Shown in pieces: positions 23-51,031 of a DNA stretch of 64,000 nucleotides; within the stretch, counting starts at the first letter, position 1, and every line of letters starts with the position of its first letter. The position numbers and the translations under genes are program-made. The DNA is taken from contig JAOAGR010000004.1 of the NCBI GenBank assembly GCA_026415655.1, positions 134,773-198,772 on the forward strand, given 5' to 3'. The notes beneath the pieces are model-generated. The model searched no databases, was not told the DNA's origin, and saw only the letters and a list, made by a program, of their open reading frames with translations. The stretch comes from Candidatus Dojkabacteria bacterium (lineage in GTDB: Bacteria; Patescibacteriota; Dojkabacteria; JAOAGR01).

Positions 23-607
23 ATGAATGTTTCTAAACGAAATTTCCTATTTGAAAATTTAGTTAAATTCAAGCCTGAGTATCAATATAAAATAATTCTG
101 GAGCTCTCTGATCATAATCAGGTCAATGAGAATGATAAAATTAAAGAATTGAAGCTATTGCTAATTGAAAGATATTCAGAATTAGGCAGTAAAATAGAGA
201 TAAAAAACGTAAATAAAGAGGTTGTGACAGAAACAATTCAATGGTTAAAAGAATATCCAATCTCTCTAAAATCTTATAATGAAGCTATTCGTAAGCTTGA
301 GGCATCAGTTTTTGAACGAAACTTACTAGATGACTTAAGATTGTCATTTGAATCGTTATTGAAGAAAGTATTGAATAATGAGAAAACACTTGAAAATCAA
401 CAATCATATCTTGGAGACTACTTAAAACAAAAAGCAATTTCTCCAGAATTACGTAATTTGATCAACCTTTATAGAGATTATTTTACAAAGTACCAAAATA
501 ATTACGTTAAACACAACGATAAAGTAAATAAAAAAGAAATTGAATACATTTTTGAAGTTACGACATCTTTGATGAAGCTGATAATTCGTCTAGAAAACAC
601 AGATTAA
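23..607 (+). CDS. Hypothetical protein, 194 aa, directly upstream of the type I R-M operon
   Basis: Uninterrupted ORF with lysine/glutamate-rich composition typical of this genome. I recognise no motif. Its position makes it a candidate R-M/defence accessory gene. Confidence 0.5.
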   Translation: MNVSKRNFLFENLVKFKPEYQYKIILELSDHNQVNENDKIKELKLLLIERYSELGSKIEIKNVNKEVVTETIQWLKEYPISLKSYNEAIRKLEASVFERNLLDDLRLSFESLLKKVLNNEKTLENQQSYLGDYLKQKAISPELRNLINLYRDYFTKYQNNYVKHNDKVNKKEIEYIFEVTTSLMKLIIRLENTD

Positions 608-676
608 AGCCTGCTTCTTGAAGAATTTCGATTATTCCGATTCCAATGAGAAAATACTATAATTCTTCAGATTAAA

Positions 677-3600
677 ATGGCATTCAATGAAGATACAAGA
701 GTAAAGATCCCTGCGATCTTACATCTTACCCGTTTAGGTTATAAATATATTTCTTTAAAGAATGCTGTTTATGAGGAGAGTACGAATATTTTTACTGAAA
801 TATTCAAACAGAGTATTTCAAAAATAAACGATAGCATAGATGTCGCTGATATTGAGAAAGAGCTAGAAAACATTTCTCTTGATCTAGAAAACGAGGACTT
901 AGGTGAAGCCTTTTATAAAAGGCTAACCTCAAATAACGGAATTAGGTTAATTGATTTTAACGACTTTTCCAGAAATACCTTTAATGTATGCACAGAGCTA
1001 ACTTATAAAAATGGCGAGGATGAGTTCCGACCAGATATTACAATCCTGATTAATGGAATGCCTCTCGCTTTTATTGAGGTTAAGAAACCCAATAATCGTG
1101 ATGGTGTGCTTGCTGAAAGAAACAGGATTAATGTCAGATTCAAGAATGCAAAATTCCTTAAATTTATAAATATAACTCAACTTCTGATTTTTTCTAATAA
1201 TATGGAGTATGAAAATAACTCTGTAGAGCCAATACAGGGAGCTTTCTACTCGACTTCTTCATACACGAGTGCAAATTTTAATTATTTCCGCGAGGAAAAA
1301 CCAGGAGAATTACAGGAATTAACTGATTTAGAAGATGATGTTGAGAACTTTGTTCTTGCAGACAATAACCTGAACACAATTAAACATTCTCCCGAATTCA
1401 TTACTAATAAAAAAACAACCACGCCGACAAACAGAATTCTCAGTTCAATGCTGAGTATTAATAGGTTCGCTAAAATTTTGAAATACGGTATCGCGTACGT
1501 TAGAACCTCAATTGATAATCAGGTTGTTATTGAAAAACATATCATGAGATATCCTCAACTTTTTGCTACTGAAGCAATTGAGCAGAAACTCGAGGAAAAG
1601 GAGAATCACGGAATCATCTGGCACACGCAAGGAAGTGGTAAAACAGCATTAGCTTTTTATAATGTACATTATCTTACAGATTATTACCGCAAGAAAGGTA
1701 TTGTCCCAAGATTTTATTTTATCGTAGATAGAATTGATCTTTTAAATCAGGCGAAAAAAGAGTTCTCCAGCCGTGGGCTTACTGTTTATACTGTGAACTC
1801 TAAAGAAGAACTTTTAAAAGACTTTCAAATTGGCAAGGCTTTGAATAACTTATCAGGTAAAAGAGAAATAACGGTTGTAAATATCCAGAAGTTTAAAGAT
1901 GAAAGTCATTTATTAAGTGACAAGGACTACGATATTAATATTCAAAGAGTGTATTTCCTTGATGAAGTGCATCGTAGTTATGATCCTAAAGGAAGTTTCC
2001 TGGCAAATCTTTTTGCTTCAGACCGCAATGCTGTAATTATTGGGCTGACAGGAACACCACTTATTGGTGCTGATAAAAGCACAAGACAAATTTTCGGTAA
2101 CTATATCCATAAATATTATTACAATGCTTCAATTGCTGATGGATATACTTTACGTTTGATTCGTGAAGGGATTGAGACGAATTACAAGATGCAGCTTCAG
2201 GAGGCATTGAAAGAAGTTGAAATATTAAAAGGTTCTGTAGACAGAACATCAATATATTCTCATCCAAAGTTTGTAGAGCCAATGCTTGATTATATTGTAG
2301 ATGATTTTCTCAAAAGCCGAACGAGACTTGGTGATAACACGATCGGCGGTATGGTTGTATGCGATAGCTCAGAGCAGGCGGAAGCAATGTCACAACTTTT
2401 TGCGAAGAAATATTCAAAAAAACTTAATGCTTATTTTGAAGCAACCGGAAATTATGCATTAAATTCCGGGAACGAGGCTTTTATCTTTAATGATGGAAGT
2501 GAAGGTTTGAACGGAGCGTTGATTCTTCATGACTCCGGGACAAAAGACGATAGAAAACAGGCATCAGAAGATTTTAAAAACGGAAAGATTGATCTGCTTT
2601 TTGTTTACAATATGCTTCTGACAGGTTTCGACGCTAAAAGATTAAAGAAACTTTATATCGGACGTGTCATACGAGAACATAATCTACTCCAGACATTAAC
2701 AAGAGTTAATAGACCATACAAGAAGTTCAAATACGGTTATGTTGTAGATTTTGCTGATATTCGAAGTGAATTTGATAAGACAAATAAAGCGTATTTTGAT
2801 GAATTACAAAACGAGTTAGGTGAAGAATTTGATAAATACTCAGCACTATTCAAATCTCAAGAAGAAATTGAACAGGAAATAAAGGAAATTAAAGAGCAAC
2901 TATTCAAATATGATTTGAGTAATTCGGAAATTTTTTCTCAACAGATTTCTCAGATTGAAGATAGAAAGACAGTACTGGAAATTAAAAAAGCACTGGAGAA
3001 TGCAAGGAATTTATATAATTTAATCAGACTCCAAGGTGATTATGAACTTCTTGAGAAATTAGATTTCCGTAAGCTCTCCGAGCTTTTAAGTGAAACCGCA
3101 AGACATCTTGATCTATTGAACCTAAAAGAGGATCTGCAAAATAACGAAGAAAATAAGAATTTACTAAATGAGGCACTGGAAGATGTAATTTTTGCTTTTA
3201 GGAAGGTATCAGAAGAAGAGCTTGTTATCGCTGATGAATTAAAAGATATTTTGCGAAAGACAAGAGAAACTTTAAACCATAATATTGATAAAAAGGATCC
3301 TCAATTCGTAGCCTTATATGAAGAACTTAAAAGACTATTCAGTAAAAAGAATTTGGATGAGATCACTCAGGAAGAAATGAAAACAAATATTGTTTCTCTC
3401 CAAAAGATTTATCAAAGAATTCTGGATTTGAATCGTCAGAATAATTTATTGAAAGCAAAATATAACAATGACGAGAAGTATGTAAGAGTTCATAAGAGAA
3501 TTCTTGAAACAGGACGTCCGACTAGAAAAGAAATTGAGCTTTATGAGGCTCTAATGGGAGTAAAAGCACAGGCAGATGAAAAAGTCTTAATTAATCACAA

Positions 3601-3760
3601 TATCCTGAATAACGACGGATATTTTGAAAACCTTATGACTCAAACTGTTGTTAATACTTTTCAAGATGTAAATATTCCTCTGGATGCAGAATCTGCTATC
3701 TTTATCAACCAGTGTATCTCTAAAGAATATTTGAACGAATTTAAAGGAATCACGCAATGA
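677..3760 (+). CDS. hsdR: Type I restriction enzyme R subunit (HsdR)
   Basis: N-terminus MAFNEDTRVKIPAILHLTRLGYKYISL is typical of HsdR. Helicase motif I is GIIWHTQGSGKTALAF and motif II (DEAH-like) is VYFLDEVHRS. The protein is 1027 aa. Its stop overlaps the hsdM start (ATGA). Confidence 0.9.
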   Translation: MAFNEDTRVKIPAILHLTRLGYKYISLKNAVYEESTNIFTEIFKQSISKINDSIDVADIEKELENISLDLENEDLGEAFYKRLTSNNGIRLIDFNDFSRNTFNVCTELTYKNGEDEFRPDITILINGMPLAFIEVKKPNNRDGVLAERNRINVRFKNAKFLKFINITQLLIFSNNMEYENNSVEPIQGAFYSTSSYTSANFNYFREEKPGELQELTDLEDDVENFVLADNNLNTIKHSPEFITNKKTTTPTNRILSSMLSINRFAKILKYGIAYVRTSIDNQVVIEKHIMRYPQLFATEAIEQKLEEKENHGIIWHTQGSGKTALAFYNVHYLTDYYRKKGIVPRFYFIVDRIDLLNQAKKEFSSRGLTVYTVNSKEELLKDFQIGKALNNLSGKREITVVNIQKFKDESHLLSDKDYDINIQRVYFLDEVHRSYDPKGSFLANLFASDRNAVIIGLTGTPLIGADKSTRQIFGNYIHKYYYNASIADGYTLRLIREGIETNYKMQLQEALKEVEILKGSVDRTSIYSHPKFVEPMLDYIVDDFLKSRTRLGDNTIGGMVVCDSSEQAEAMSQLFAKKYSKKLNAYFEATGNYALNSGNEAFIFNDGSEGLNGALILHDSGTKDDRKQASEDFKNGKIDLLFVYNMLLTGFDAKRLKKLYIGRVIREHNLLQTLTRVNRPYKKFKYGYVVDFADIRSEFDKTNKAYFDELQNELGEEFDKYSALFKSQEEIEQEIKEIKEQLFKYDLSNSEIFSQQISQIEDRKTVLEIKKALENARNLYNLIRLQGDYELLEKLDFRKLSELLSETARHLDLLNLKEDLQNNEENKNLLNEALEDVIFAFRKVSEEELVIADELKDILRKTRETLNHNIDKKDPQFVALYEELKRLFSKKNLDEITQEEMKTNIVSLQKIYQRILDLNRQNNLLKAKYNNDEKYVRVHKRILETGRPTRKEIELYEALMGVKAQADEKVLINHNILNNDGYFENLMTQTVVNTFQDVNIPLDAESAIFINQCISKEYLNEFKGITQ

Positions 3761-5382
3761 CCACACAAGATTTTATAACTAAAACCAAAGATCTGATCGA
3801 TGACCTCAAAGGCGTATGTTCACGTTATGGTCTGGGAAATGACGGTAATGAATTCAAGATCATCACACAAGTCTTCCTGTACAAATTTATGAATGATAAA
3901 TTTGTATTTGAAACGAAAAAGATTGAACCAAAACTTGCTGAAGGGACAAGCTGGGAGGACGAGATTTCCAAACTTTCTGATTCTGATTATCAGATGCTTC
4001 TCCTCAAACTCAATCCCTCAAGTGCAAGACTGAAAAAAGAGCATTTTCTCTCTTATCTTCATAACAGACAGAATAGCGAGCAGTTTGGAAAGCTTTTTGA
4101 TGACACATTAAGAGACATCGCAATATTCAATAATCAGGTTTTTTCTGTAAAGACTGAATCCGGTACCAAGCTTACTCTTTTTGATGAACTTACAAATTAT
4201 ATTGCTGATACTTCCAAACGTGATGATTTTGCACGGGCAATTATCAATCAGCTTGTGAATTTCAGTTTTGAAAAAGTTTTTAATCAGAAATTTGATTTCT
4301 TTTCGACAATCTTTGAATACTTGATTAAAGACTATAACAAAGATGGTGGAGGCAAATATGCCGAGTATTACACTCCTCATGCAGTCGCCAAGATTATGTC
4401 GTCAATTCTTGTCGATAAGCCTGTTAGCAATGTTACTTGTTATGATCCATCAGCTGGATCAGGAACACTTCTTATGAACCTTGCTCATGCAATTGGTGAA
4501 GACAGATGTACGATTTATTCACAGGATATTTCTCAGAAATCATCCGGAATGCTTAGGTTGAATTTAATCTTGAATAATCTTGTTCATTCAATCCCAAATA
4601 TTATTCAGGGTGATACTTTACTTTTCCCTTATCATAGAGATGGAAATGGTTTAAAAAAGTTTGATTATATTGTCTCCAATCCTCCTTTTAAGCTGGATTT
4701 TAGTGATACTCGTGAAAGTCTTGATACAAAAGAAAACAGCGAAAGATTCTTTGCCGGAATTCCTACTGTTCCTCCAAAAGATAAGGATAAAATGCCGATT
4801 TACTTGCTTTTTATACAGCATATTATTTACTCTCTGTCTGAAGCTGGTAAAGCTGCAATAGTTGTTCCGACAGGTTTCTTAACAGCCAAAAATGGAATAG
4901 AAAAGAAAATTCGTTCTGAACTAATAGATAAAAAGATCTTGCGAGGAGTGATATCAATGCCAAGCAACATTTTTGCAACAACTGGAACTAATGTTTCTGT
5001 AATTTTCCTGGATAAGGAAATACAGTCGGATACGGTAATTTTAATGGATGCATCAAAGTTAGGAACAACAGTAAAAGAAGGTAAAAATCAGAAAACACTT
5101 CTTTCTTTTGAGGAGGAACAAAAGATTATTGATACATTTAATAAACATGAAGAGTTTGAAGATCTTTCTATTGTTGTGTCTTATGAGCAAGTGAAAGAAA
5201 AAGATTACAGCTTCAGTGCGGGGCAATATTTTGAAGTAAAACTTGAATATGTTGAGATAACGAAAGAGGAGTTTAAAAAGAAAATGGAGGATTATGAAAA
5301 TAATCTAAAACAATATTTTGATGAGTCAGAAAAGTTACAAAAGAAGATTTTAGAAAATTTTACAAGACTGGAGCATGAATAA
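3757..5382 (+). CDS. hsdM: Type I R-M N6-adenine DNA methyltransferase M subunit (HsdM)
   Basis: SAM-binding motif I is YDPSAGSGTLL and motif IV is VSNPPF. The 541-aa size fits HsdM. It overlaps hsdR and hsdS. Confidence 0.9.
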   Translation: MTTQDFITKTKDLIDDLKGVCSRYGLGNDGNEFKIITQVFLYKFMNDKFVFETKKIEPKLAEGTSWEDEISKLSDSDYQMLLLKLNPSSARLKKEHFLSYLHNRQNSEQFGKLFDDTLRDIAIFNNQVFSVKTESGTKLTLFDELTNYIADTSKRDDFARAIINQLVNFSFEKVFNQKFDFFSTIFEYLIKDYNKDGGGKYAEYYTPHAVAKIMSSILVDKPVSNVTCYDPSAGSGTLLMNLAHAIGEDRCTIYSQDISQKSSGMLRLNLILNNLVHSIPNIIQGDTLLFPYHRDGNGLKKFDYIVSNPPFKLDFSDTRESLDTKENSERFFAGIPTVPPKDKDKMPIYLLFIQHIIYSLSEAGKAAIVVPTGFLTAKNGIEKKIRSELIDKKILRGVISMPSNIFATTGTNVSVIFLDKEIQSDTVILMDASKLGTTVKEGKNQKTLLSFEEEQKIIDTFNKHEEFEDLSIVVSYEQVKEKDYSFSAGQYFEVKLEYVEITKEEFKKKMEDYENNLKQYFDESEKLQKKILENFTRLEHE

Positions 5383-6556
5383 ATTAGTGAAACTACAACT
5401 TGGAGAAGCAGTAACTTACTCTACAAAGAGAGTAGCTCTAAAGGATGTTCCTCTTCAAAACTATGTAACTACGGATAATCTTTTGCAGAATAAAGCAGGT
5501 GTTACTGAAGCTACTAATTTGCCACCAAATTCTAAAAATGTATCAAAATATGAAAATGGACATATACTTGTCTCAAATATAAGACCTTACCTGAAAAAAA
5601 TATGGTTCGCAAATAGGGAAGGTGGGTGTTCAGCAGATGTATTAAATCTTGAAGTTCGAGAAGGATTTGATCCTATGTTTGTATATTATTCAATATTTGG
5701 TGATGACTTCTTCGACCATATGATGAAGGGTGCGAAAGGATCAAAGATGCCCAGAGGAGATAAGCAGCAGATATTAACGTACCAAATACCCAATATCACA
5801 ATACAAGAACAGCAAACAATCGTCTCTGTTCTTTCTACCCTCGATGCTAAAATCGAACTCAATAACAAAATCGTTGCTGAATTAGAATCTCTGGCAAAAA
5901 CCATTTATGAATATTGGTTTATCCAGTTTGATTTCCCTGATGAAAATGGAAGACCTTATAAATCGAGTGGAGGGAAGATGGTTTGGAGCGAAGCTCTGAA
6001 AAAGGAAATACCAGAGGGATGGGAGGTAAAAAAGGTAGGGGATTTAGTGGATGTAAAAAGAGGTAAAAACATCACAAGAAAAACTGTTGTTGAAGGAGAT
6101 ATACCAGTTATTGCAGCAGGATTAGAGCCAAGTTGTTATCACAATGTTTCAAATACATCCTCACCTGTAATAACAGTTAGTGGATCTGGGGCAAATGCTG
6201 GATATATTCAGCTGCATTATAAAGAAATATGGGCGTCTGATTGTTCATATATTGATCAGACTATGTTTAGCCAAATTCACTTTATGTATTTGTTTTTAAG
6301 AAGTAAACAAAATGAAGTTTACGATATGCAGAAAGGTTCGGCACAACCTCATGTCTACCCGCAAGATATCATGGATATTAAGGTTCTGGTTGATAAAGAA
6401 TTAAAGATGATCTCTAGATTTGAGACACTTGTAGTATCGCTGTATAAACAAATTGGCAAAAGCAAAGTACAAAATCAAAAACTTATAGATCTTCGAGATT
6501 GGCTTTTACCGATGCTTATGAATGGGCAGGTGAGTATCAAAGATAAAATTAGTTAA
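5375..6556 (+). CDS. hsdS: Type I R-M specificity subunit (HsdS)
   Basis: Two target-recognition-domain halves are separated by a conserved central helix (LESLAKTIYEYWFIQFDFPDENG) and end in a conserved C-terminal helix (LIDLRDWLLPMLMNGQV). The protein is 393 aa. Confidence 0.85.
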   Translation: MNKLVKLQLGEAVTYSTKRVALKDVPLQNYVTTDNLLQNKAGVTEATNLPPNSKNVSKYENGHILVSNIRPYLKKIWFANREGGCSADVLNLEVREGFDPMFVYYSIFGDDFFDHMMKGAKGSKMPRGDKQQILTYQIPNITIQEQQTIVSVLSTLDAKIELNNKIVAELESLAKTIYEYWFIQFDFPDENGRPYKSSGGKMVWSEALKKEIPEGWEVKKVGDLVDVKRGKNITRKTVVEGDIPVIAAGLEPSCYHNVSNTSSPVITVSGSGANAGYIQLHYKEIWASDCSYIDQTMFSQIHFMYLFLRSKQNEVYDMQKGSAQPHVYPQDIMDIKVLVDKELKMISRFETLVVSLYKQIGKSKVQNQKLIDLRDWLLPMLMNGQVSIKDKIS

Positions 6557-6564
6557 GTAATAAA

Positions 6565-8370
6565 ATGTACCTCGCAGAATTAAAGCTATGGAATTTCAGA
6601 AAATATGGAGATAATAGCTTTGAACTGGAAAAACCACATTTGGTAGTGCCATTCAAAAAGGGATTAAATGTCCTAGTTGGCGAAAATGATTCCGGTAAGT
6701 CTGCAATTTTAGATGCAATTAAAATTGCCTTAAAAACACATGCTATAGAGTGGGTAAAAGTTGACGAAGAAGATTTTTATAATGAAAGCTCAAAACTACG
6801 TATAGAGTTGGTGTTTAAGGGATTAGAAGATGCAGAAGCAAAAAACTTTATTGAATGGCTTGGTTGGGAAGAGAATGAAACTAAAGAACAAGTTCCTATA
6901 TTAAAATTAATTTATCAGGTTGAGTACAAAAATAACCGGATTATTCCTACTGATATCTCAGCTGGTATGGATGATTTTGGCTCTCCTTTAAATGCGGAAG
7001 CCAAAGAATATTTAAAAATCACATATTTAAAAGCTTTAAGGGACGCAGATAATGAACTTATTGCAAAGAAAAACTCCAGGCTTTCTCAAATACTAAAGGG
7101 ACATCATCTATTTCAAGAGAAACTTCCGCATAATGTTCACAAGCTAACGAATAAGCTCAACGAGTTTAATGAAGAGGTTAAAAAATGGTTTGAAGATGAT
7201 AAAAAAGATAGTGGTAAATCAAAGTCAAATAAAGAAGAGATAAAAGATATTATTGATGAATTTATTGGTGCATTTATAGATCAAGAAAATAATAGCTCAA
7301 ATTTTACACTTTTTGAGCCAAACATTATTTCAATATTAGAAAAGATAACTTTAGGTTTATCAAATGTACGGAACCCTGGTTTGGGAACACTTAACAGGTT
7401 ATACATGGCGGCTGAGTTACTTCATCTAAAGCGGCGGGATTGGAATGGTGTAAAGTTATGTTTGATTGAGGAGTTAGAAGCCCATCTACATCCACAAGCT
7501 CAAATGAAAATTGTAGAAAAACTTCAAACTGAAGCTGAAAAAGCAAACTTACAAATCATACTAACAACTCATAGTCCGAATTTGGCATCAAAAGTAAAAA
7601 TTGAAAATCTTATTTTATGTAATAGTAATAGAGCATATTCACTTGATGTCGGAAATACGAGACTTGATAAAGATGATTATAAATACTTAAAACGCTTTCT
7701 GGATGTGACCAAGTCAAATTTATTCTTTGCGAAGGGGGTAATTATTGTTGAGGGGTGGTCAGAAGAGATCTTAATACCGGTTTTAGCAAAAAAAATAGGA
7801 TGTGATCTAACTCAAAACGAAGTCTCAATTGTAAATGTTGGTTCAACTGCTTACTTGCACTTCGCAAAAATATTTTTAAGAAAAGATTCAAGCGAAAAAT
7901 TAGATATTCCAGTTTCAATAATAACAGATCTTGATGTTCGACCTGATGAAACAGATGGTCAGTTTAATACCGAAGAAGAGCAAACAAAGGAATCAAGTAT
8001 TAAAGCAGATTTCAAAGACTTTAATGATTCAAATGTGAAGATATATATCGCAAAGCAGTGGACATTAGAGTGGTGTATTTTTAAATCAAGTTTGTCAGAT
8101 AAGTTCAAAGAGATTATTGCTAATGTTCACTCTGGTACTGAAGAATTCAAGAAAGATGAAAATGATAAGTTTTCATCTGAGTTCGAAACAAAATTAATTG
8201 ATAAGTTAAAAAAATCTAAGGGGAGTTCAGGTCTAGATAAGGTGAGATTAGCTACAGAATTAGCAGAATCTCTTGAATATATAGATATAACAATTGATGA
8301 AGGCGACGAGTATTTAGATTATTTAATTGAAGCTATAAAACACGCATGTAAAGACAATGGAAATAAGTGA
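6565..8370 (+). CDS. gajA: OLD-family ATP-dependent endonuclease (ABC-type ATPase plus C-terminal Toprim); GajA-like, class 2 OLD
   Basis: Walker A is VGENDSGKSAILDAI, Walker B/D-loop is LCLIEELEAHLHP, and the H-loop is TTHSP. Toprim motifs are IIVEGWSEEILIP (conserved Glu) and SIITDLDVRPDE (DxD). The start is 8 nt after the hsdS stop. The 3' end overlaps the downstream UvrD-like gene. Confidence 0.75.
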   Translation: MYLAELKLWNFRKYGDNSFELEKPHLVVPFKKGLNVLVGENDSGKSAILDAIKIALKTHAIEWVKVDEEDFYNESSKLRIELVFKGLEDAEAKNFIEWLGWEENETKEQVPILKLIYQVEYKNNRIIPTDISAGMDDFGSPLNAEAKEYLKITYLKALRDADNELIAKKNSRLSQILKGHHLFQEKLPHNVHKLTNKLNEFNEEVKKWFEDDKKDSGKSKSNKEEIKDIIDEFIGAFIDQENNSSNFTLFEPNIISILEKITLGLSNVRNPGLGTLNRLYMAAELLHLKRRDWNGVKLCLIEELEAHLHPQAQMKIVEKLQTEAEKANLQIILTTHSPNLASKVKIENLILCNSNRAYSLDVGNTRLDKDDYKYLKRFLDVTKSNLFFAKGVIIVEGWSEEILIPVLAKKIGCDLTQNEVSIVNVGSTAYLHFAKIFLRKDSSEKLDIPVSIITDLDVRPDETDGQFNTEEEQTKESSIKADFKDFNDSNVKIYIAKQWTLEWCIFKSSLSDKFKEIIANVHSGTEEFKKDENDKFSSEFETKLIDKLKKSKGSSGLDKVRLATELAESLEYIDITIDEGDEYLDYLIEAIKHACKDNGNK

Positions 8371-10480
8371 TGAACATCTAAAACGAGCTGAAGAATTGCT
8401 ACTCGGTGATAAGACTTTTGATGAAAAAGAAAGAATCCCTTTTATAAAGAATCTCACAACATTAGACTTACTGGCAGTCCCTGGGAGCGGAAAAACTACT
8501 GCATTACAAGCTAAATTATATTGCATTGCACAACAAATGCCCTTTGAAGATGGATCAGGAATATTGGTATTGTCTCATACGAATGCAGCAGTAGAAGAAA
8601 TCGAAAAGAATTTAAAAAGTATTTGCCCGCAACTTTTCACATATCCAAATTTTGTTGGAACAGTACAGAGTTTTGTAAATAAATTCCTTGCTAATCAGGC
8701 TTGTTATAGTTGTTTTGGGTCTTATATTAGAATAAATGATAACGATATTTACTACTCGCAGGTTAAAAAGTTTTATAACAAATTGGAATGGAAGAAGCCT
8801 AGTGATAAGGAAAATAAATTAAAAAATCTACTGTATGGTAAAGCAAATCATGGAAGAAGTGGGCTGACAACTGAGCAGAAAAACCAGAATACTATTGATT
8901 TTATTTACAATTTAAAATTTGATTTGTGTAGTCAAAAGATTCTATATGGATCAAAACTAACGACGCTTTACTCAGCTAGCGGAAAAGCTAGGGATAAATA
9001 TGATGAGTTGTTCACTTGGAAAAAAAGTCTTTTTGAGCAAGGTATATTATCTTTTTCGGATTCCTATTACCTTGCAAATTGGTATTTAGTAAACTATCCC
9101 AAAGTAATTGAGTATCTACAGAGTCGATTCACCTATATTTTTGTAGATGAAGCTCAAGATTTAGAAAAGTATCAACTTGATATAATTGATGAGATTTTTT
9201 ACAAAAACGGAAGAGCAATAATTCAAAGAGTTGGAGATATTAATCAAGCTATTTATAATTCCAGCAAAGCTGTAAAAACCCAGTGTGATTGGAAAACTCG
9301 AAATGAGTATTACTTGAAATGTTCACATCGGCTAACAAAAGAAATTGCAGATGTTGTTAATAATTTCACTTTAGACTGTCAACAAGATCAACTTGGAAAT
9401 CCTAAGTTTGAAGTCGATGGACTGAGAATATTGGAAAGCAATATTAAACCTCACTTGATACTATTTGATGATTCATCCAAATCACAGATACAAAATAAAT
9501 TTGATGACTTGATAAAGAGTTTTAAGTTAGAAAAGACAGTAGAGGGACAAAAGTACGGATTTCACATTATCGGATGGAATGGAAGTTGGAAAGAAGAGAA
9601 AAAAGATGAGAATAAGTTAAGGCTGGAAGATATATTCCCTAGCTATAAAAAAGATACAAAAAGCTCAAAGTCCCACTACAACACCTTAAGTGAGTACATT
9701 CAATATTTCAAAAAAGATGCAAAGACACTTGAAAATGCAAAAAATGCAGTTTTGGAATTATTACAACAAGTCTTGTATTTAGAAGGAAAGACAAATACAA
9801 GATCTATCAGAGGTGTAAAAAAAGAGATGAGATACACACAGGTTGAACTTTTGAAATTATTGAAGGAAGACGACGCTATATACGAAGATTTTAAACTAAA
9901 ACTTTACTCATGGTCGTTCTCCATGATGGTTAAGCAGGATTATGAAAAAGTATATCAGGAAATAAAAGCTTTTATTTTAGGTGAATTCAAAACCTGGTTC
10001 AGTTTACAAATTAACGATGAGACTAAATTGCTACTAGAAGATAACTTCAAGCCAGTATTGGTTACTCCATCTGAAGAAACTAAAAGAAAAGATAGGTTTT
10101 CTTTTGAAATAAATACAGTTCATTCCGTAAAAGGCAAGACTCACTGTGCGACAATGTATGTAGAGACGTCGTATCATAGTTACGAAACAGAAAAATTAAA
10201 ATCTCCAAATCCATTATATAAAGAAAAGCATAACTACATAGATCCTAAAGTCAAAAATATTACTAGGGCTATTGAAACGATTAAAATGATGTATGTAGGA
10301 TTTTCCCGACCAACTCACCTATTATGTTTTGCTGTATTAAAAGATAATGTTAAGAATGATCTTAAAAAATATCAAAACGCTGGATGGGAAATCGTAGATC
10401 TGACTGAAACCATATCACTGCAAAAATATCTAAAATTCGATATCCCGGAACCCTCGGAGGTTACACAAGGTACTGTATAA
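8357..10480 (+). CDS. gajB: UvrD/PcrA-like superfamily I helicase; GajB-like partner of the OLD nuclease
   Basis: Walker A is LLAVPGSGKTTAL, motif II is YIFVDEAQD, and a motif V/VI-like segment reads TVHSVKGKTHCATMYVE. It overlaps the 3' end of the OLD-family gene by 14 nt. Confidence 0.7.
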   Translation: MEISDEHLKRAEELLLGDKTFDEKERIPFIKNLTTLDLLAVPGSGKTTALQAKLYCIAQQMPFEDGSGILVLSHTNAAVEEIEKNLKSICPQLFTYPNFVGTVQSFVNKFLANQACYSCFGSYIRINDNDIYYSQVKKFYNKLEWKKPSDKENKLKNLLYGKANHGRSGLTTEQKNQNTIDFIYNLKFDLCSQKILYGSKLTTLYSASGKARDKYDELFTWKKSLFEQGILSFSDSYYLANWYLVNYPKVIEYLQSRFTYIFVDEAQDLEKYQLDIIDEIFYKNGRAIIQRVGDINQAIYNSSKAVKTQCDWKTRNEYYLKCSHRLTKEIADVVNNFTLDCQQDQLGNPKFEVDGLRILESNIKPHLILFDDSSKSQIQNKFDDLIKSFKLEKTVEGQKYGFHIIGWNGSWKEEKKDENKLRLEDIFPSYKKDTKSSKSHYNTLSEYIQYFKKDAKTLENAKNAVLELLQQVLYLEGKTNTRSIRGVKKEMRYTQVELLKLLKEDDAIYEDFKLKLYSWSFSMMVKQDYEKVYQEIKAFILGEFKTWFSLQINDETKLLLEDNFKPVLVTPSEETKRKDRFSFEINTVHSVKGKTHCATMYVETSYHSYETEKLKSPNPLYKEKHNYIDPKVKNITRAIETIKMMYVGFSRPTHLLCFAVLKDNVKNDLKKYQNAGWEIVDLTETISLQKYLKFDIPEPSEVTQGTV

Positions 10481-10709
10481 TCAGCGATAAACCCTCAAAA
10501 AATAGTTTACTCGGAAAGTTAGTGGCCCTCATAGTGTATGATTAGCCCATGCAATTCACAGAAAAAGAAATAGAGGAATTCAAACAAATTTATTTTGAAG
10601 AATATGGCACTACCATTACTACAATGGAGGCTATAGAAATGGCAACAAACTTAATCACTTTACTCAGAATCGTTTTAAAGATTGACGTTTAAAACGAGAA
10701 TAACTCAAA

Positions 10710-11351
10710 TTAAGCTAGGTTAATCAAAAATTCTTTAATTTGTGGGGTTATCGGCCATAAAACCTTACTCGAATAATCCAGATATTCATCTTCACTTAAC
10801 TCAGAAAGAGTTCTAGTTTCTCCTTCAGGAATAAAAAACCGGTCATAATAATAACCAAGTTTTGTAATTCTCAAACTGTCAGATGCAGTTCCCTTAACAA
10901 TTACTATGTCACTTGCAAAGCTCCCATCAGGTAGAGCAATACCAATACCATAAACCGAATTTACCCTTCTATCCTCCTTGATTTTCCTGAGAAGCAGCTC
11001 GCTTCGATAAATATCCTGCCCGTATTCTGTCTCTGCTGACTGATCACTTGTATCCACAGAATCATAAAGAAATTTAACATCCTCCCGTCCTGCAAATACC
11101 TCTTTTGTTTTCGTCCCCGGCCAATTATCAAGAGAGGGGATTTCTATGCCCCTATCAAGCGAAATAGAAATCATTTCGTATGCTCTGGCATACTCGACAG
11201 CTTTTTTGATGGAATCCTTCTCAAAATCTCCTGTATCCTCTTTTACATCAATATTTTTATCTTCAATATCAAGCAAAGTCACAAGTTCAAATTCTTTATT
11301 AAGTCCTAAATTAAACCACGCCTTTTTTAAAAGGTTTGAATTTTGATCCAT
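10710..11351 (-). CDS. Hypothetical protein, 213 aa
   Basis: Long ORF convergent with the Gabija-like pair. I recognise no motif. Confidence 0.45.
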   Translation of the reverse strand: MDQNSNLLKKAWFNLGLNKEFELVTLLDIEDKNIDVKEDTGDFEKDSIKKAVEYARAYEMISISLDRGIEIPSLDNWPGTKTKEVFAGREDVKFLYDSVDTSDQSAETEYGQDIYRSELLLRKIKEDRRVNSVYGIGIALPDGSFASDIVIVKGTASDSLRITKLGYYYDRFFIPEGETRTLSELSEDEYLDYSSKVLWPITPQIKEFLINLA

Positions 11352-23047: not shown

Positions 23048-26000
23048 ATGGCTATACTTATCAATAAGGATGGAAAAGGTCTTGAGGAACGAATTAATGA
23101 ATTGATTTTACGGTCGGACGAGTTGAGATTTTTGGTTGGATTTTTTTATTTTTCTGGATTTCGAGAGATTTATGAAAGCATCAAGAAAAATTCACAATTA
23201 AGAGAAATAAAGGTACTTGTGGGATTAAATGTTGATGAATATAACAATGTATTAGTGGAATATGGTAAAGATTCTGAGACAATTGGCGATAACCTAAAAA
23301 GACGAGTTCAAAAGACAATTGGTCAGACCACCGAAGAAGTTATAACGGAACTTCTGAATAGCTATCGAAAGACATCTAGGCATGAGGATTGCGATACAAA
23401 AGAATTTTATGAAAGTGCGAAACTTTTTTTGGATCTGTTAAGACAATCAAAATTATTAATAAGAAAAACAAAAGAACCGAATCATTCGAAGTTATATTTG
23501 TTTCATCTAATAAATAATACTCCTCCAAATATTGCTATCTTGGGCAGTAGTAATCTGACTAAATCTGGACTCTCTGAAAATTCGGAATTGAATGTAGAAA
23601 TTAGAGATGATGATTATCTGGAAAAGTTAGTTGAGTATTTTGATGAACAATGGATAAATTCGATAGATCTAAATGGAGATGATACTAAACAGAGAATTAT
23701 TGATGTTATAGAGAATAACTCACCGATAAAATCTATTACTCCGTTTGAGGCTTATATTTATATTTTATACCTTTATTATAAAAACAACTTTGTGCATTCA
23801 GATAAAGATGATGAATTAAATAGTTTTTTAGAAAAGAAAGGATATAAACCATTCAAATTTCAATTAGATGCGGTCAATCAAGCTTGCCAGATATTGAATG
23901 AACATAATGGTGTCATATTGGCTGATGTTGTAGGTCTTGGTAAAAGTATAATTGCCTGTTTGATAGGTAAAAAAATAAAATTAAGGGGTATCGTCATAGC
24001 GCCGCCAGGACTCATCGGTGATATAGAGCTAAAAACATCAGGATGGGCAAAATATCTCAATGATTTTGAATTGTATGACTGGGAGATTTTTTCTGCTGGG
24101 AAGCTGGATCAAGCACTGGAGCGGGTCAAGAGTGAAAACTTTGACATAGTGGTGGTAGATGAAGCTCATCGGTTTAGAAATGAAAATACAGAAAGTTATA
24201 CTTATCTACAGTCTATTTGTAGAGGTAAAAAAGTTGTCTTACTCACTGCGACACCATTCAATAACAACCCGTCAGATGTTTTTTCTTATCTGAAGCTTTT
24301 TACCATACCTAAAAAGTCAACGTTGACCGCGAATGGAGATCTTGAGTCAGAATTTCGAGAGATGGAAGATAAGTATCAAAAATTTACGCGTATTTTGAAG
24401 GGTAAGGATAAAGATAAAGATAAAGATAAAGATAAATCGCTAGAAATTTATAAGAAATTATTTCAAGGGGAGAGATATATAGATAATGAAAAATTGAAAA
24501 ATGAATTAAAAAATATATCAATGCGTATAAAGGGAATAATTCAAAAGGTATTGATACGCAGAAATAGAATAGATCTAAAAAATAATCCCTATTATAAAGA
24601 TGAAATCAAGGAATTACCTGTTGTCCATTCACCAAGAGAATGTTTTTTTACTTTGAATAAGGAATTGGATGGTTTTTATGATGATGTACTAAAAGAATAC
24701 TTCGCGGAAGATGGAGTCTTTAAGGGAGCGGTATATAGACCTGATAGATATAAAAAAAAGTATCAGAGCCAAAAACTTATTGAAAATACGACCAACGATC
24801 CCGTATCAGAGATAGCACCTCAGTATAACCTCTATGACTTTATGCGTAGGTTACTTGTGAAAAGATTTGAAAGTTCACTTTTTGCGTTTTACAGAAGCTT
24901 AGAAAATTTTATTAATTTTTATCAAAAGTGTCTTGATTCTATCAACAAAACAAATAGATTTATCTATAACCGTAGCGTGATCGAAGACATTTTGAGAATG
25001 GATATAGATAGTATTGATGAGACTGAACTTAATGAGCGATTGACAAAGATATTGGAGGAAAATGGCGTAGATAAAGAGGACATATATCCCATTGAAAATA
25101 TGCAGGATAGCTTTATTGACGACATAACTAGTGATATTCGACTTTTGGTAGATGTCAAGGATCGACTGGATAAATTGGCAGTGATGGGGAATAATGATCC
25201 AAAAATTTTCGCCCTAAGAGAAAATCTTGATAAAATTTTGAAGCAAGGGGAAAAAGCAATCATCTTTACTGAGTTTGTGGATACTGTCAAATATCTTGCT
25301 GAGAACTTAAATGGTTATAGGATATTTGCAGTGACTGAGAAACCTACAAGACATATATATCAGCAGATCCTTGAGAATTTTGACGCATCGTATCCAAAAG
25401 ATAGGCAGATAAGTGATTTTGATATATTGATTGTTACGGATCGTTTTTCTGAGGGATACAATCTGAATCGTGCTAATCATGTGTTTAATTTTGACATTCC
25501 GTGGAATCCTGTACGTGTTATACAGAGGTTAGGTAGGATCAACCGTATCGGTACTACGCCATATAAAAATCTTTATATATATAATTTTTTTCCAACAACC
25601 AGAGGTGAAGAACAGATAAATCTAAGAAGAACAGCTGAAACGAAGATGTTTATGATACATCGGTGTTTAGTCGAAGATGCAAAGATCTTTTCGGAAGAAG
25701 AGGAACCTACGCCATCCGAGCTTTATAAGAGATTAAATCAAAACCCGGAGGAGTTGGGTGAAGAAGAGTCATTACTTACTAAAGTATCTAAAATCTTGAA
25801 TAGTCATAAAGATGTACAGAGAAAGGTCGAGGATCTACCGCGTTATATCAAGGTTGCTAAGAAATATACGGAAAATAATCTAGTACTAACTGTACAAAGG
25901 GCAAACGGTCTTTACTTTTTTATCAATAACAAAGAACATCCTGTCTCATTGGATGAGGTAATAAAATATATCGAATGTGATCCGGACGAACCTAGATACG

Positions 26001-26428
26001 AATTATCAAATGATTTTTGGACCAATTATCAAAACCTGAAAGACTCGTACCAGAAGTATGCGCATAATCGGTCAGATAAAAGGGATACTAGCACAAGGGG
26101 GGCATTGTCTGATAAAGAAAGAGCAATAAATGTACTCAGGGAGATAATTTCAAAAAACCCCAACTGGTTAGATGAAGATCTCCGAAATTTTCTGGAAAAT
26201 ATTTTGGAGGATCTGATAGAGTACTCGACACTACCCAAAAGGATTGTAAATAGGATCGCTTCTATTAAGCCAAGTAAATTAGCCCATGACAAAAATGCAA
26301 TGTTAAAGATTTTTGAAGAGATCCGTCGTTTTATCAGTCTGGATTATTTTGCGAATGTGATCGAAAGATCCAAACAGACAAAAAGTGAAATTATAATTTG
26401 TATAGAAAATCAGTACCATGGAGGATAA
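23048..26428 (+). CDS. Fusion protein: N-terminal PLD-family (HKD) nuclease domain plus SNF2-family helicase. It resembles DISARM DrmC and DrmD combined
   Basis: The HKD motif is HSKLYLFHLINNTPPNIAILGSSNLTKSG (HxK...GSxN). SNF2 motif I is ILADVVGLGKSIIA and motif II is VVVDEAHRFRN. The helicase C-terminal domain motif VI reads QRLGRINRIGT. The protein is 1126 aa. An in-frame (GATAAA)n microsatellite encodes KDKDKDKDKDK at 24404-24436. Confidence 0.8.
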   Translation: MAILINKDGKGLEERINELILRSDELRFLVGFFYFSGFREIYESIKKNSQLREIKVLVGLNVDEYNNVLVEYGKDSETIGDNLKRRVQKTIGQTTEEVITELLNSYRKTSRHEDCDTKEFYESAKLFLDLLRQSKLLIRKTKEPNHSKLYLFHLINNTPPNIAILGSSNLTKSGLSENSELNVEIRDDDYLEKLVEYFDEQWINSIDLNGDDTKQRIIDVIENNSPIKSITPFEAYIYILYLYYKNNFVHSDKDDELNSFLEKKGYKPFKFQLDAVNQACQILNEHNGVILADVVGLGKSIIACLIGKKIKLRGIVIAPPGLIGDIELKTSGWAKYLNDFELYDWEIFSAGKLDQALERVKSENFDIVVVDEAHRFRNENTESYTYLQSICRGKKVVLLTATPFNNNPSDVFSYLKLFTIPKKSTLTANGDLESEFREMEDKYQKFTRILKGKDKDKDKDKDKSLEIYKKLFQGERYIDNEKLKNELKNISMRIKGIIQKVLIRRNRIDLKNNPYYKDEIKELPVVHSPRECFFTLNKELDGFYDDVLKEYFAEDGVFKGAVYRPDRYKKKYQSQKLIENTTNDPVSEIAPQYNLYDFMRRLLVKRFESSLFAFYRSLENFINFYQKCLDSINKTNRFIYNRSVIEDILRMDIDSIDETELNERLTKILEENGVDKEDIYPIENMQDSFIDDITSDIRLLVDVKDRLDKLAVMGNNDPKIFALRENLDKILKQGEKAIIFTEFVDTVKYLAENLNGYRIFAVTEKPTRHIYQQILENFDASYPKDRQISDFDILIVTDRFSEGYNLNRANHVFNFDIPWNPVRVIQRLGRINRIGTTPYKNLYIYNFFPTTRGEEQINLRRTAETKMFMIHRCLVEDAKIFSEEEEPTPSELYKRLNQNPEELGEEESLLTKVSKILNSHKDVQRKVEDLPRYIKVAKKYTENNLVLTVQRANGLYFFINNKEHPVSLDEVIKYIECDPDEPRYELSNDFWTNYQNLKDSYQKYAHNRSDKRDTSTRGALSDKERAINVLREIISKNPNWLDEDLRNFLENILEDLIEYSTLPKRIVNRIASIKPSKLAHDKNAMLKIFEEIRRFISLDYFANVIERSKQTKSEIIICIENQYHGG

Positions 26429-27122
26429 AAACCAACAAATATTAGAAAATTTTATACATGCTAAGAGTTTTTATGATATTTCCAGGTCATTTATTGATTT
26501 TATTACTGGGAAGACTTCTAATTTTGTTGATTGTAAAAATGAAATAGAAGTATTTGGATATAAGGTCTATCAAATAGGATCAATAGAAGTGGGCAGAAAT
26601 GAGTATATACCGATATTTATTATTGAATTAAGAGAACTAAGCGAAAGAACATCAAGAAAACATCAGTTTGAATTGGGAAAAACAATATTGCGTGGAGAAT
26701 ACTTGTATATAGCTGGTATATTTATATTTTATGATAAAAACGGCAATAAAAGAATAAGTTATATAGAAAAGATATATAAAGATGGTAAGGAACTTTATAC
26801 AACATTTAAGAGATATACCTTCTTCATAAGTGAAAGCCAGACTAATAAAACCTTTCTAAGGCAATTTGCCAGTGGTGATTTTACTAAACAAAAAAGTATA
26901 AGGGAAATCTTTAGTGTAGAAAAAGTAACAAAACAATTTTATCAAGAGATTTCAAGCTGGTATTTTTGGGCACTGAGTCATGTGCGTTTTACAGATGATG
27001 CAGAGAATGAAAAAAATGGCCGCGAGATAGGGATCATTCGTTTTATAACTAGAATAATCTTTGTTTGGTTCATGCGTGAAAAAGGCCTTGTACCAAAGGA
27101 TTTATTTGATTTTAACAAGTAG
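26418..27122 (+). CDS. N-terminal segment of a PglX/DrmMI/MmeI-family adenine methyltransferase, ended by an in-frame TAG
   Basis: It ends in ...IIRFITRIIFVWFMREKGLVPKDLFDFNK*. The downstream ORF is in the same frame and continues the conserved N-terminal region (QNVLKTLDDNESTYYRAILQNLFFATLNTP). The start overlaps the stop of the PLD-SNF2 gene. Confidence 0.6.
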   Translation: MEDKNQQILENFIHAKSFYDISRSFIDFITGKTSNFVDCKNEIEVFGYKVYQIGSIEVGRNEYIPIFIIELRELSERTSRKHQFELGKTILRGEYLYIAGIFIFYDKNGNKRISYIEKIYKDGKELYTTFKRYTFFISESQTNKTFLRQFASGDFTKQKSIREIFSVEKVTKQFYQEISSWYFWALSHVRFTDDAENEKNGREIGIIRFITRIIFVWFMREKGLVPKDLFDFNK

Positions 27123-27140
27123 CAAAATGTATTAAAGACA

Positions 27141-49514: not shown

Positions 49515-51031
<1,517 letters not shown>

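Follow-up and report, generated by a model that had tools for sequence, protein, structure and literature searches.

A Gabija gene pair as putative cargo of a type I restriction-modification operon in a contig assigned to Dojkabacteria

Introduction

Gabija is among the commonest anti-phage systems, and its in vivo trigger is debated. In the stretch of 64,000 nucleotides (nt) analysed here (the window: positions 134,773 to 198,772 of contig JAOAGR010000004.1, assembly GCA_026415655.1, recorded as Candidatus Dojkabacteria bacterium), a Gabija pair, gajA and gajB, stands directly behind hsdR, hsdM and hsdS, the three genes of a type I restriction-modification (R-M) system. An earlier inspection of the letters, which we call the sequence-only reading, had described the five genes as one contiguous operon. 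The locus raises the question of whether such an arrangement is a fortuitous neighbourhood or a unit of defence, and what a Gabija pair would do in it. The data presented below make it quite probable that the five genes form a composite, co-transcribed and layered anti-phage operon in which the type I R-M genes are the carrier and gajAB the cargo.

Results

Arrangement and integrity of the five genes

The five open reading frames (ORFs) are co-directional on the plus strand, and their coordinates (Table 1) were reproduced by a six-frame ORF listing. The junction sequences, which were read directly, give distances of -4, -8, +8 and -14 nt for R/M, M/S, S/gajA and gajA/gajB: hsdR and hsdM overlap by 4 nt in the form ATGA, hsdM and hsdS overlap by 8 nt, and the 8-nt gap TAAGTAATAAAATG separates hsdS from gajA. 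This is exactly the arrangement that had been read from the sequence, with no gap or overlap above 14 nt. The tight spacing, together with the strong family matches and the low substitution ratios given below, indicates that the five genes are no chance pattern of ORFs. The GC content is 0.32-0.34 in the island and 0.27-0.36 in the flanks.

Pfam, PADLOC and NCBIfam together find the full set of type I R-M subunits in the first three genes, that is, an HsdR with a nuclease and a superfamily 2 (SF2) motor, an HsdM, and an HsdS with two target recognition domains (TRDs). HsdR contains the Pfam domains HSDR_N, SWI2_SNF2, ResIII and a T1R_D3-like domain, is matched by the PADLOC profile REase_I (1e-41), and has the nuclease motif D...EVK (residues 115-136), GSGKT at 319 and DESH at 408. 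HsdM is recognised by Pfam N6_Mtase (6.5e-67) and, end to end, by the PADLOC profile MTase_I PDLC03033 (E=9e-265), with the motif NPPF at 308, while HsdS is matched by Methylase_S in two stretches and by Specificity_I (1.6e-100). The NCBIfam scores are under the curated cut-offs (255 vs 285 for hsdR, 174 vs 243 for hsdM), which marks this R-M family as divergent with respect to the TIGR seeds. As judged from their predicted proteins, the three hsd genes make up a complete type I system, in agreement with the earlier identification of hsdRMS.

The ratio of nonsynonymous to synonymous substitution rates (dN/dS) against relatives is 0.02-0.03 for hsdR, 0.06-0.07 for hsdM, 0.14 for the 3' half of hsdS and 0.08-0.09 for gajA, the last with synonymous sites near saturation; for gajB no score was obtainable, the synonymous sites being saturated. 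The genes measured, namely hsdR, hsdM, the hsdS 3' half and gajA, are by these values under strong purifying selection.

Of the two large R-M subunits, HsdM would be expected to be the better conserved. The cassette of the window shows the reverse: in comparison with the related loci L111 and L112, HsdR is 97-98% identical at the amino acid (aa) level vs 89-90% for HsdM, with dS of 0.46 vs 0.77-1.03. This inversion may point to a cassette that is a mosaic formed by recombination.

The product of gajA matches the PADLOC profile PDLC00080 over residues 1-597 (E=6e-219), and Pfam finds AAA_15 (3.5e-31) and OLD-like_TOPRIM (7.6e-18) in it, that is, an N-terminal ATPase fused to a C-terminal TOPRIM domain. 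The Walker A motif GENDSGKS (39-46), the stretch EELEAHLH (302-309), the TOPRIM glutamate E396 within VEG, and DLD (455-457) are all present. K45, H307, E396, E400, D455, D457 and K559 are invariant in alignments of 26 and 36 sequences, and H309 is invariant in one of them and nearly so in the other. The residues for activity or regulation of the Bacillus cereus GajA are K35, H320, E379, D511 and K541 (Cheng 2021), and we infer that residues of the window GajA map one-to-one onto D511 and K541 of that protein. An AlphaFold model of the protein (pLDDT 81.5, pTM 0.71) finds as its best Foldseek match a solved Gabija GajA, 8u7i_A (E=7e-21, TM 0.61, ~15% identity), followed by the class 1 OLD protein 6p74; 8sm3_A and 8x5i are further matches. 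Exact-sequence look-ups with the GajA and HsdM of the window gave no entry; the identical GajA sequence is recorded at NCBI as MCX8035060.1, 'MAG: AAA family ATPase', under the name Candidatus Dojkabacteria bacterium and on a contig of 202,918 bp.

Directly downstream, overlapping gajA by 14 nt, lies the gene of a UvrD/PcrA-like helicase, as is the rule for class 2 OLD systems. Its product is matched by Pfam UvrD-helicase (2.3e-27) and by PADLOC GajB profiles (1.8e-207 and 1.3e-180), and contains PGSGKTT (42-48, with GSGKT at 43-47), DEAQD (264-268), GDINQAIY (293-300), VHSVKG (588-593) and GFSR (648-651); the superfamily 1 (SF1) motifs I, II, III, V and VI do not vary among 22 sequences. In the PDB, the GajB family profile reaches UvrD1, PcrA and Rep, and the B. 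cereus GajB was not reached from the window GajB by sequence or profile search, while the GajA family profile reaches the B. cereus GajA at ~4e-8. The fusion of TOPRIM to the ATPase and the UvrD-type helicase place the pair in class 2 (Gabija) and not in class 1 or class 4 of the OLD family. By all these matches gajAB are a genuine Gabija subtype, divergent and not a close copy of the B. cereus system.

The PADLOC, Pfam and fold matches agree with the sequence-only reading of the pair as class 2 OLD plus UvrD, and all the motifs which that reading had named were located (Walker A/B, H-loop, Toprim E and DxD in the ATPase; GSGKT and DEAQD in the helicase). It had also named two ways in which it could fail. 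If the 601-aa protein were a PARIS AriA-like ATPase, the AriA model should do better than it does: it covers only the ATPase half, residues 1-340, at 6e-34 vs 6e-219 for the full-length GajA match. AbiEii was ruled out on domain coverage and scores in Pfam and PADLOC. The other possibility, a helicase of a non-UvrD family, is answered by the UvrD-helicase and GajB matches given above.

Table 1. Features of the window and their positions
Feature	Position	Strand	Size	Description
hsdR	677-3760	+	1027 aa	type I restriction subunit
hsdM	3757-5382	+	541 aa	N6-adenine methyltransferase subunit
hsdS	5375-6556	+	393 aa	specificity subunit
hsdS/gajA spacer (cargo junction)	6557-6564	+	8 nt	sequence read directly
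gajA	6565-8370	+	601 aa	class 2 OLD-family ABC-ATPase/TOPRIM nuclease
gajB	8357-10480	+	707 aa	UvrD/PcrA-like SF1 helicase
R-M cassette leader	631-676	+		putative operon promoter region; TATAAT (-10-like) at 658-663
PDC-S32 gene, 3' part	23-607	+		5' end beyond window start; 69 nt upstream of hsdR
Right boundary spacer	10481-10709		229 nt	up to the convergent Ham1/RdgB gene
Small ORF	10549-10692	+	47 aa	within the gajB-Ham1 spacer
Ham1/RdgB	10710-11351	-		Pfam and NCBIfam matches
Second defence locus	23048-31142	+		proteins of 1126, 234 and 1333 aa
16S rRNA gene	49515-51031	+		followed by tRNA-Ile(GAT) and tRNA-Ala(TGC), to 51632

Probable co-expression of the five genes

The 8-nt gap between hsdS and gajA leaves no room for a separate gajA promoter. 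The 3' half of hsdS is native to the cassette and was not brought in together with gajA, since it is 92% identical, as far as 8 nt short of its stop codon, to that of L111, a locus without gajAB. In those relatives in which gajAB are embedded, hsdR lies downstream of the pair, so that transcription must pass through gajAB. On these grounds we strongly infer that gajAB of the window would be co-transcribed from the hsd leader, and the overlaps between neighbouring genes suggest translational coupling.

The TATAAT of the leader and the bases around it do not differ between the window, L112 and L111. The scan with the sigma-70 consensus did not call this TATAAT, there being no good -35 element, and found no sigma-70-like site on the plus strand over 4827-6874; the promoter rules of the host lineage may differ from those of sigma-70. 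No terminator-like site was found on the plus strand inside the operon, except for a weak 5-bp stem in hsdM, and after gajB neither a terminator nor a significant RNA structure was recognisable (folding z-score -0.02). Promoter and terminator prediction, which had been proposed as a check of the single operon, is compatible with it for the interior and leaves the operon promoter and the end terminator uncalled. The spacing, the scans, the conserved leader and the junctions of the relatives are all consistent with the five genes being one operon.

A clade of GajA linked to restriction genes

The closer relatives of the window GajA come from a large protein database, and most of them lie next to R-M genes as well (Table 2). 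A neighbour-joining tree of 36 GajA sequences places all those linked to R-M genes in a single clade and 29 unlinked ones outside it. An hsdS gene is directly upstream of gajA in 7/9 loci of the clade vs 0/29 sister loci (Fisher p = 3e-6, no phylogenetic correction), and a restriction gene of any kind in 8/9 vs 0/29 (p = 2e-7, likewise uncorrected). The distance from hsdS to gajA is -20 to +10 nt in seven relatives, compared with +8 in the window, and where the pair is embedded hsdR follows gajAB with gaps of 1-47 nt or with overlaps. The R-M systems of L115-L121 belong to another type I family, with HsdM 23% and HsdR ~26% identical to those of the window. With the type III system of L114, the association of the clade with R-M extends over three restriction families, two of them of type I and unrelated.

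Table 2. Gene context of gajA in relatives of the window GajA, with their identity to it
Locus	GajA identity	Gene order	Remark
L113	72%	hsdR-hsdM-hsdS-[+8]-gajA-gajB	DNA ~70-78%, continuous over junction
L114	75%	gajA overlapping type III res gene	
L115	63%	hsdM-hsdS-gajA-gajB-(AlbA2/HTH gene)-hsdR	
L116	62%	hsdS-gajA-gajB (split), then hsdR-like ORF	
L117	62%	hsdM-hsdS-gajA-gajB	then contig end
L118/L119	64%	hsdM-KilA_N-hsdS-gajA-gajB-hsdR	
L120 (Tenuifilum thalassicum)	63%	gajAB by KilA-N gene and hsdM remnant	decayed R-M locus
L121	63%	hsdM-hsdS-gajA-gajB-(175-aa gene)-hsdR	

Outside the clade the picture is different. In the loci of 30 GajA relatives of 47-60% identity, mostly from Flavobacterium and other Bacteroidota, gajA and gajB always abut each other, and tblastn with the Hsd proteins of the window found no hsd genes within 10 kb; this negative result stands for the sister clade, as a distant HsdM was detectable at E ~1e-20. 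The species-representative set from which these loci were taken contains only GajA at most 60% identical to that of the window, outside the R-M-linked clade. The one-off juxtaposition suggested by the screen of these 30 loci was a conclusion that the closer relatives reversed. As a background from viral contigs, 3 of ~34 distant OLD/GajA loci have an hsdM-like gene within 10 kb. No member of the clade was found in viral contigs or plasmids, where the best GajA relatives are at most 41% (viral) and 49% (plasmid) identical. Compared with the unlinked ones, R-M-linked GajA proteins have no extra domain and are set apart by no more than 2 clade-specific residues plus an indel of 2 aa.

Proteins identical to those of L121 and L120 are recorded under the names of the cultured Bacteroidota Zhouia amylolytica and Tenuifilum thalassicum, respectively. 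The fusion of Gabija and R-M had been called notable for a reduced genome; the name Dojkabacteria, of the Candidate Phyla Radiation (CPR/Patescibacteria), fits that description. The arrangement is no peculiarity of this genome, as it recurs across a whole GajA clade.

Some of the loci show signs of decay or additional genes. In L116 (11769-13879) gajB is broken into ORFs of 262 and 438 aa, a sign of decay, and in L120 (8371-10000) an intact gajAB pair stands beside no more than an hsdM remnant and a KilA-N gene. The KilA-N protein (PADLOC PDC-S22, 1.6e-126) is encoded between hsdM and hsdS in L118/L119 (2455-3294 in L118). Its gene is kept in the decayed L120 (8763-9599), which suggests that it travels with the R-M-Gabija module.

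The R-M cassette and the slot after hsdS

HsdM relatives ~74% identical to that of the window occur across several phyla, and the order R-M-S with its overlaps of 4 and 8 nt is kept in 80 metagenome loci and in L111-L113. In L112 a PDC-S32 gene (97% aa identity), hsdR (98%) and hsdM (90%) follow in the same order as in the window, and the contig ends inside hsdS. The comparison with L111 by blastn defines the cassette more sharply: the DNA is homologous over window positions 631-5329 (89.5%) and 5879-6548 (92.4%), from 46 nt upstream of hsdR to 8 nt short of the hsdS stop codon, and the flanks differ. No homology to L111 was found by blastn over 5329-5879, which holds the TRD1 part of hsdS. 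As the alignment has it, the part of hsdS up to ~5879 is one with TRD1 swapped relative to L111, and the part 5879-6548 is conserved.

Although its cassette is ~90% identical to that of the window, L111 carries, 4 nt after hsdS, genes of a 389-aa protein and a PIN_3 protein instead of gajAB. Among 53 loci of the R-M-S family of the window with a complete hsdS, 21 have a co-directional ORF that starts between -40 and +80 nt of the hsdS stop, and in 14 of these 21 cases the ORF has at least 150 aa. The cargo is diverse, comprising a GmrSD-type enzyme, PDC-S18, PDC-S11, KwaA, WYL regulators, a DpnII/MboI-like nuclease and several family-less proteins. The DNA right after hsdS is, to judge by these loci, an exchangeable cargo slot of this R-M family. 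Around gajAB of the window no direct or inverted repeats were found, so that there is no sign of insertion of the transposon or integron type.

Several proteins in and near such slots deserve attention in their own right. The pair of the 389-aa and PIN_3 proteins (L111 12835-14440) has no PADLOC match, nor has the 389-aa protein a Pfam match, and slot proteins of 707 aa (L110 6285-8408) and 255 aa (L031 8987-9754) are without a match in either collection; by their position the slot proteins of L111, L110 and L031 are candidate new defence genes. An OLD/AriA-like ABC-ATPase of ~650-700 aa is encoded directly upstream of hsdR in L111 (4750-6840) and of the type III res gene in L114 (382-2343), and the 5' side of R-M cassettes may also collect ATPase-type defence genes. 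Within the R-M-S family, an insert of 0.9-2.3 kb between hsdM and hsdS in L043, L045, L062, L070, L071, L087, L091 and L109 marks a second embedding site.

Surroundings of the operon

The PDC-S32 gene at the left edge of the window is matched by its PADLOC profile at E=3.6e-55 over profile positions 47-233 of 237. In L112 the homologous protein, 97% identical, has its full 260 aa and is likewise encoded directly upstream of hsdR. The defence island may extend leftwards beyond the window. On the right side, none of the fetched loci contains a homolog of the small ORF in the spacer, MQFTEKEIEEFKQIYFEEYGTTITTMEAIEMATNLITLLRIVLKIDV, which is also without a match in Pfam and PADLOC and is probably spurious. 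Beyond it come Ham1/RdgB, in convergent orientation, and then genes of an ordinary kind, among them those of a Na/Ca exchanger and an Mfd-like helicase.

The second defence locus codes for a 1126-aa protein with HKD(PLD) and Snf2 helicase domains, a 234-aa protein and a 1333-aa type IIG restriction-methyltransferase. The first of these is DrmD-like (PADLOC C3a139, 2.4e-40), the type IIG protein is matched at 5.5e-136, and the 234-aa protein is without a match. An assignment of the 1126-aa ORF to a housekeeping gene was rejected, HKD plus Snf2 being a defence-type helicase. With their operon-like spacing, these genes may represent a DISARM-like or a helicase-assisted type IIG system. Further to the right, the remaining 12 kb of the window after the 16S rRNA gene and the two tRNA genes gave no match to 23S rRNA, and the rRNA operon appears to be unlinked.

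Discussion

The arrangement described here suggests how the operon could work. The genes hsdR-hsdM-hsdS would be the carrier, and gajAB a promoter-less cargo after hsdS, expressed by read-through from the hsd promoter. From what is known of the family, the R-M complex would form the first line, methylating self DNA and cutting unmethylated incoming DNA. By analogy with the B. cereus system, GajAB may form a second line that acts when infection proceeds despite restriction: the B. cereus Gabija is an anti-phage 4:4 GajAB complex, nicking by its GajA TOPRIM is inhibited by physiological NTP/dNTP (Cheng 2021), and Gabija is thought to fire on a change of the nucleotide pool or on DNA ends during infection. 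In the simplest view these would be complementary defences that are co-regulated and co-inherited, and no physical link between them need be assumed.

Several points weigh against this composite, co-transcribed operon. Nine contexts of the clade were sampled, and the loci are phylogenetically non-independent. The pair is also a rare cargo in the R-M-S family, found in the window and in L113 and in 0/81 of the loci L031-L111. The Gabija subtype is distant from that of B. cereus in all three respects given above, the identity of ~15%, the profile match at ~4e-8 and the B. cereus GajB that was not reached, and mechanistic details may consequently not transfer. The promoter scan, finally, is based on sigma-70, and the promoter consensus of the lineage may differ. 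This last point, together with the A/T-rich DNA upstream of gajA, would speak for two abutting transcription units, with a gajAB promoter inside the hsdS coding sequence. We consider such a promoter very unlikely: no sigma-70-like plus-strand site was found over 4827-6874, a promoter there would be fortuitous in an hsdS 3' half that is common to a cassette without gajAB, and the hsdR of the embedded relatives follows gajAB within 1-47 nt or overlaps it. Even less credit can be given to an artefact of assembly or binning, by which the five genes would be mis-joined or the island foreign to the genome of the Dojkabacteria bacterium. The host label is the NCBI name alone, and GajA, HsdM and the other defence genes of the window have their nearest relatives mostly in Bacteroidota or on metagenome contigs; the junctions, however, recur in independent assemblies (from PDC-S32 through hsdR to hsdM in L112, from hsdR through gajB in L113), the GC content is even across island and flanks, and both housekeeping genes and a gene for 16S rRNA lie on the same contig, all of which makes the artefact extremely improbable.

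The nature of the tie between the two systems allows of more than one view. The pair may be just one passenger that hitch-hikes at a recombination hotspot, with no functional tie to R-M beyond co-expression and co-transfer. The diversity of cargo in the slot, the different pair of genes in the 90%-identical cassette of L111 and the lack of clade-specific adaptations in GajA all fit this view, as does the description of the hsdS-hsdR site in the literature as a potential recombination hotspot. It leaves unexplained, on the other hand, why 8/9 clade loci are bound to R-M vs 0/29 sister loci, and why the junction is kept within -20 to +10 nt, a spacing that leaves no place for a promoter and forces co-expression; we regard it as a possibility with the odds clearly against it. 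That the clade is tied to R-M in three restriction families, two of type I that are unrelated and one of type III, suggests selection for adjacency to R-M and not one inherited accident. It invites the idea of a guardian like PrrC, in which gajAB would be silent as long as R-M is intact and, when restriction is disabled by phage anti-restriction proteins (DNA mimics such as Ocr) or by other events, would nick DNA and abort the infection. In the embedded relatives, gajAB occupy the same position between hsdS and hsdR as PrrC in EcoprrI and DarTG2 in enteropathogenic Escherichia coli (EPEC). Activation of Gabija by Ocr is stated in two papers, both secondary sources on this point, and Payne et al. 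speculate that an embedded Gabija is triggered by Ocr. What speaks against a guardian is that no R-M interface is obvious in GajA, with its lack of an extra domain and its 2 clade-specific residues and 2-aa indel; that many unrelated cargos sit in the same slot, so that position alone implies no wiring; and that L120 keeps gajAB after the decay of its R-M genes. We hold this wiring to be unlikely, and the composite operon as proposed above does not depend on it.

Speculation can be taken somewhat further. The clade might be an obligate-passenger lineage of Gabija, promoter-less and placed right after hsdS or a type III res gene, and a guardian that would sense the failure or inhibition of restriction through DNA mimics, DNA ends or nucleotide changes and would answer by nicking; to this we give a low chance. 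If it were true, the hsdS-proximal slot would be a general exchange site for guardians, with Gabija, GmrSD, PDC-S11/S18, KwaA, the 389-aa and PIN proteins of L111 and the 707-aa protein of L110 as its occupants.

To a specialist the finding will be unsurprising in principle. A Gabija clade that is almost always co-operonic with R-M nevertheless offers an opportunity provided by nature to test if Gabija is a backup or a monitor of restriction, the latter being the role of PrrC in EcoprrI, and the names Zhouia amylolytica and Tenuifilum thalassicum place members of the clade in cultured Bacteroidota. The slot, which begins within a few nt of hsdS, extends the principle of 'guilt-by-embedding' to genes appended at the 3' side, both known and uncharacterised. 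Two or three defence loci lie within 31 kb of this putative CPR genome, in line with a published survey in which CPR genomes have few defence systems and a high defence density.

Comparison with known systems

The gajAB pair shares with the Gabija of B. cereus VD045 the order of two genes with gajB abutting or overlapping gajA, the ATPase plus TOPRIM architecture, the predicted nicking residues (TOPRIM Glu, DxD and C-terminal Lys) and the SF1 motifs of the helicase. It differs from it by the ~15% GajA identity, by the lack of space for a promoter of its own and by its tie to an R-M operon. In E. coli the reported non-random co-localisation partner of Gabija is tmn and not R-M type I. With PARIS and class 1 OLD proteins the pair has in common the AAA_15/21-type ABC-ATPase and the TOPRIM chemistry; PARIS, which has been called an 'RM guardian' that responds to anti-restriction proteins, has a separate TOPRIM protein, AriB, whereas in the window one protein combines ATPase and TOPRIM and the partner is a UvrD-type helicase. 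The R-M part resembles the rest of its R-M-S type I family (PDLC03033) in its three subunits, their order, the 4-/8-nt overlaps and the TRD swapping, and departs from most members of the family, which end at hsdS or carry other cargo.

The closest parallels in architecture are type I R-M operons with an embedded defence gene, of which PrrC/EcoprrI is the classic example. DarTG2 of EPEC lies between hsdS and hsdR, and a survey by the 'guilt-by-embedding' approach counted embedded genes by the thousands in systems of the BREX, DISARM and type I R-M kinds (Payne et al. 2024). Like PrrC/EcoprrI and DarTG2, the window has an ABC-ATPase-based module right after hsdS, co-oriented with the hsd genes and at operon-like spacing, as do the seven relatives; in L115, L118/L119 and L121 the likeness extends to the position of gajAB between hsdS and hsdR (M-S-gajAB-R). 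The effectors differ, being a predicted DNA nickase with a helicase here, an anticodon nuclease in PrrC and a DNA ADP-ribosyltransferase in DarTG2. Unlike these embedded systems, gajAB of the window are appended 3' of R-M-S, the next gene being the convergent Ham1, and screens for embedding would miss the R-M-S-gajAB form as no R-M gene follows gajAB. Our literature search, incomplete and hence weak evidence on this point, found no description of a Gabija clade bound to hsdS or of the appended R-M-S-gajAB form. That defence genes occur in type I R-M operons is already established; a promoter-less Gabija cargo with a clade of its own bound to R-M would be a new form of this arrangement.

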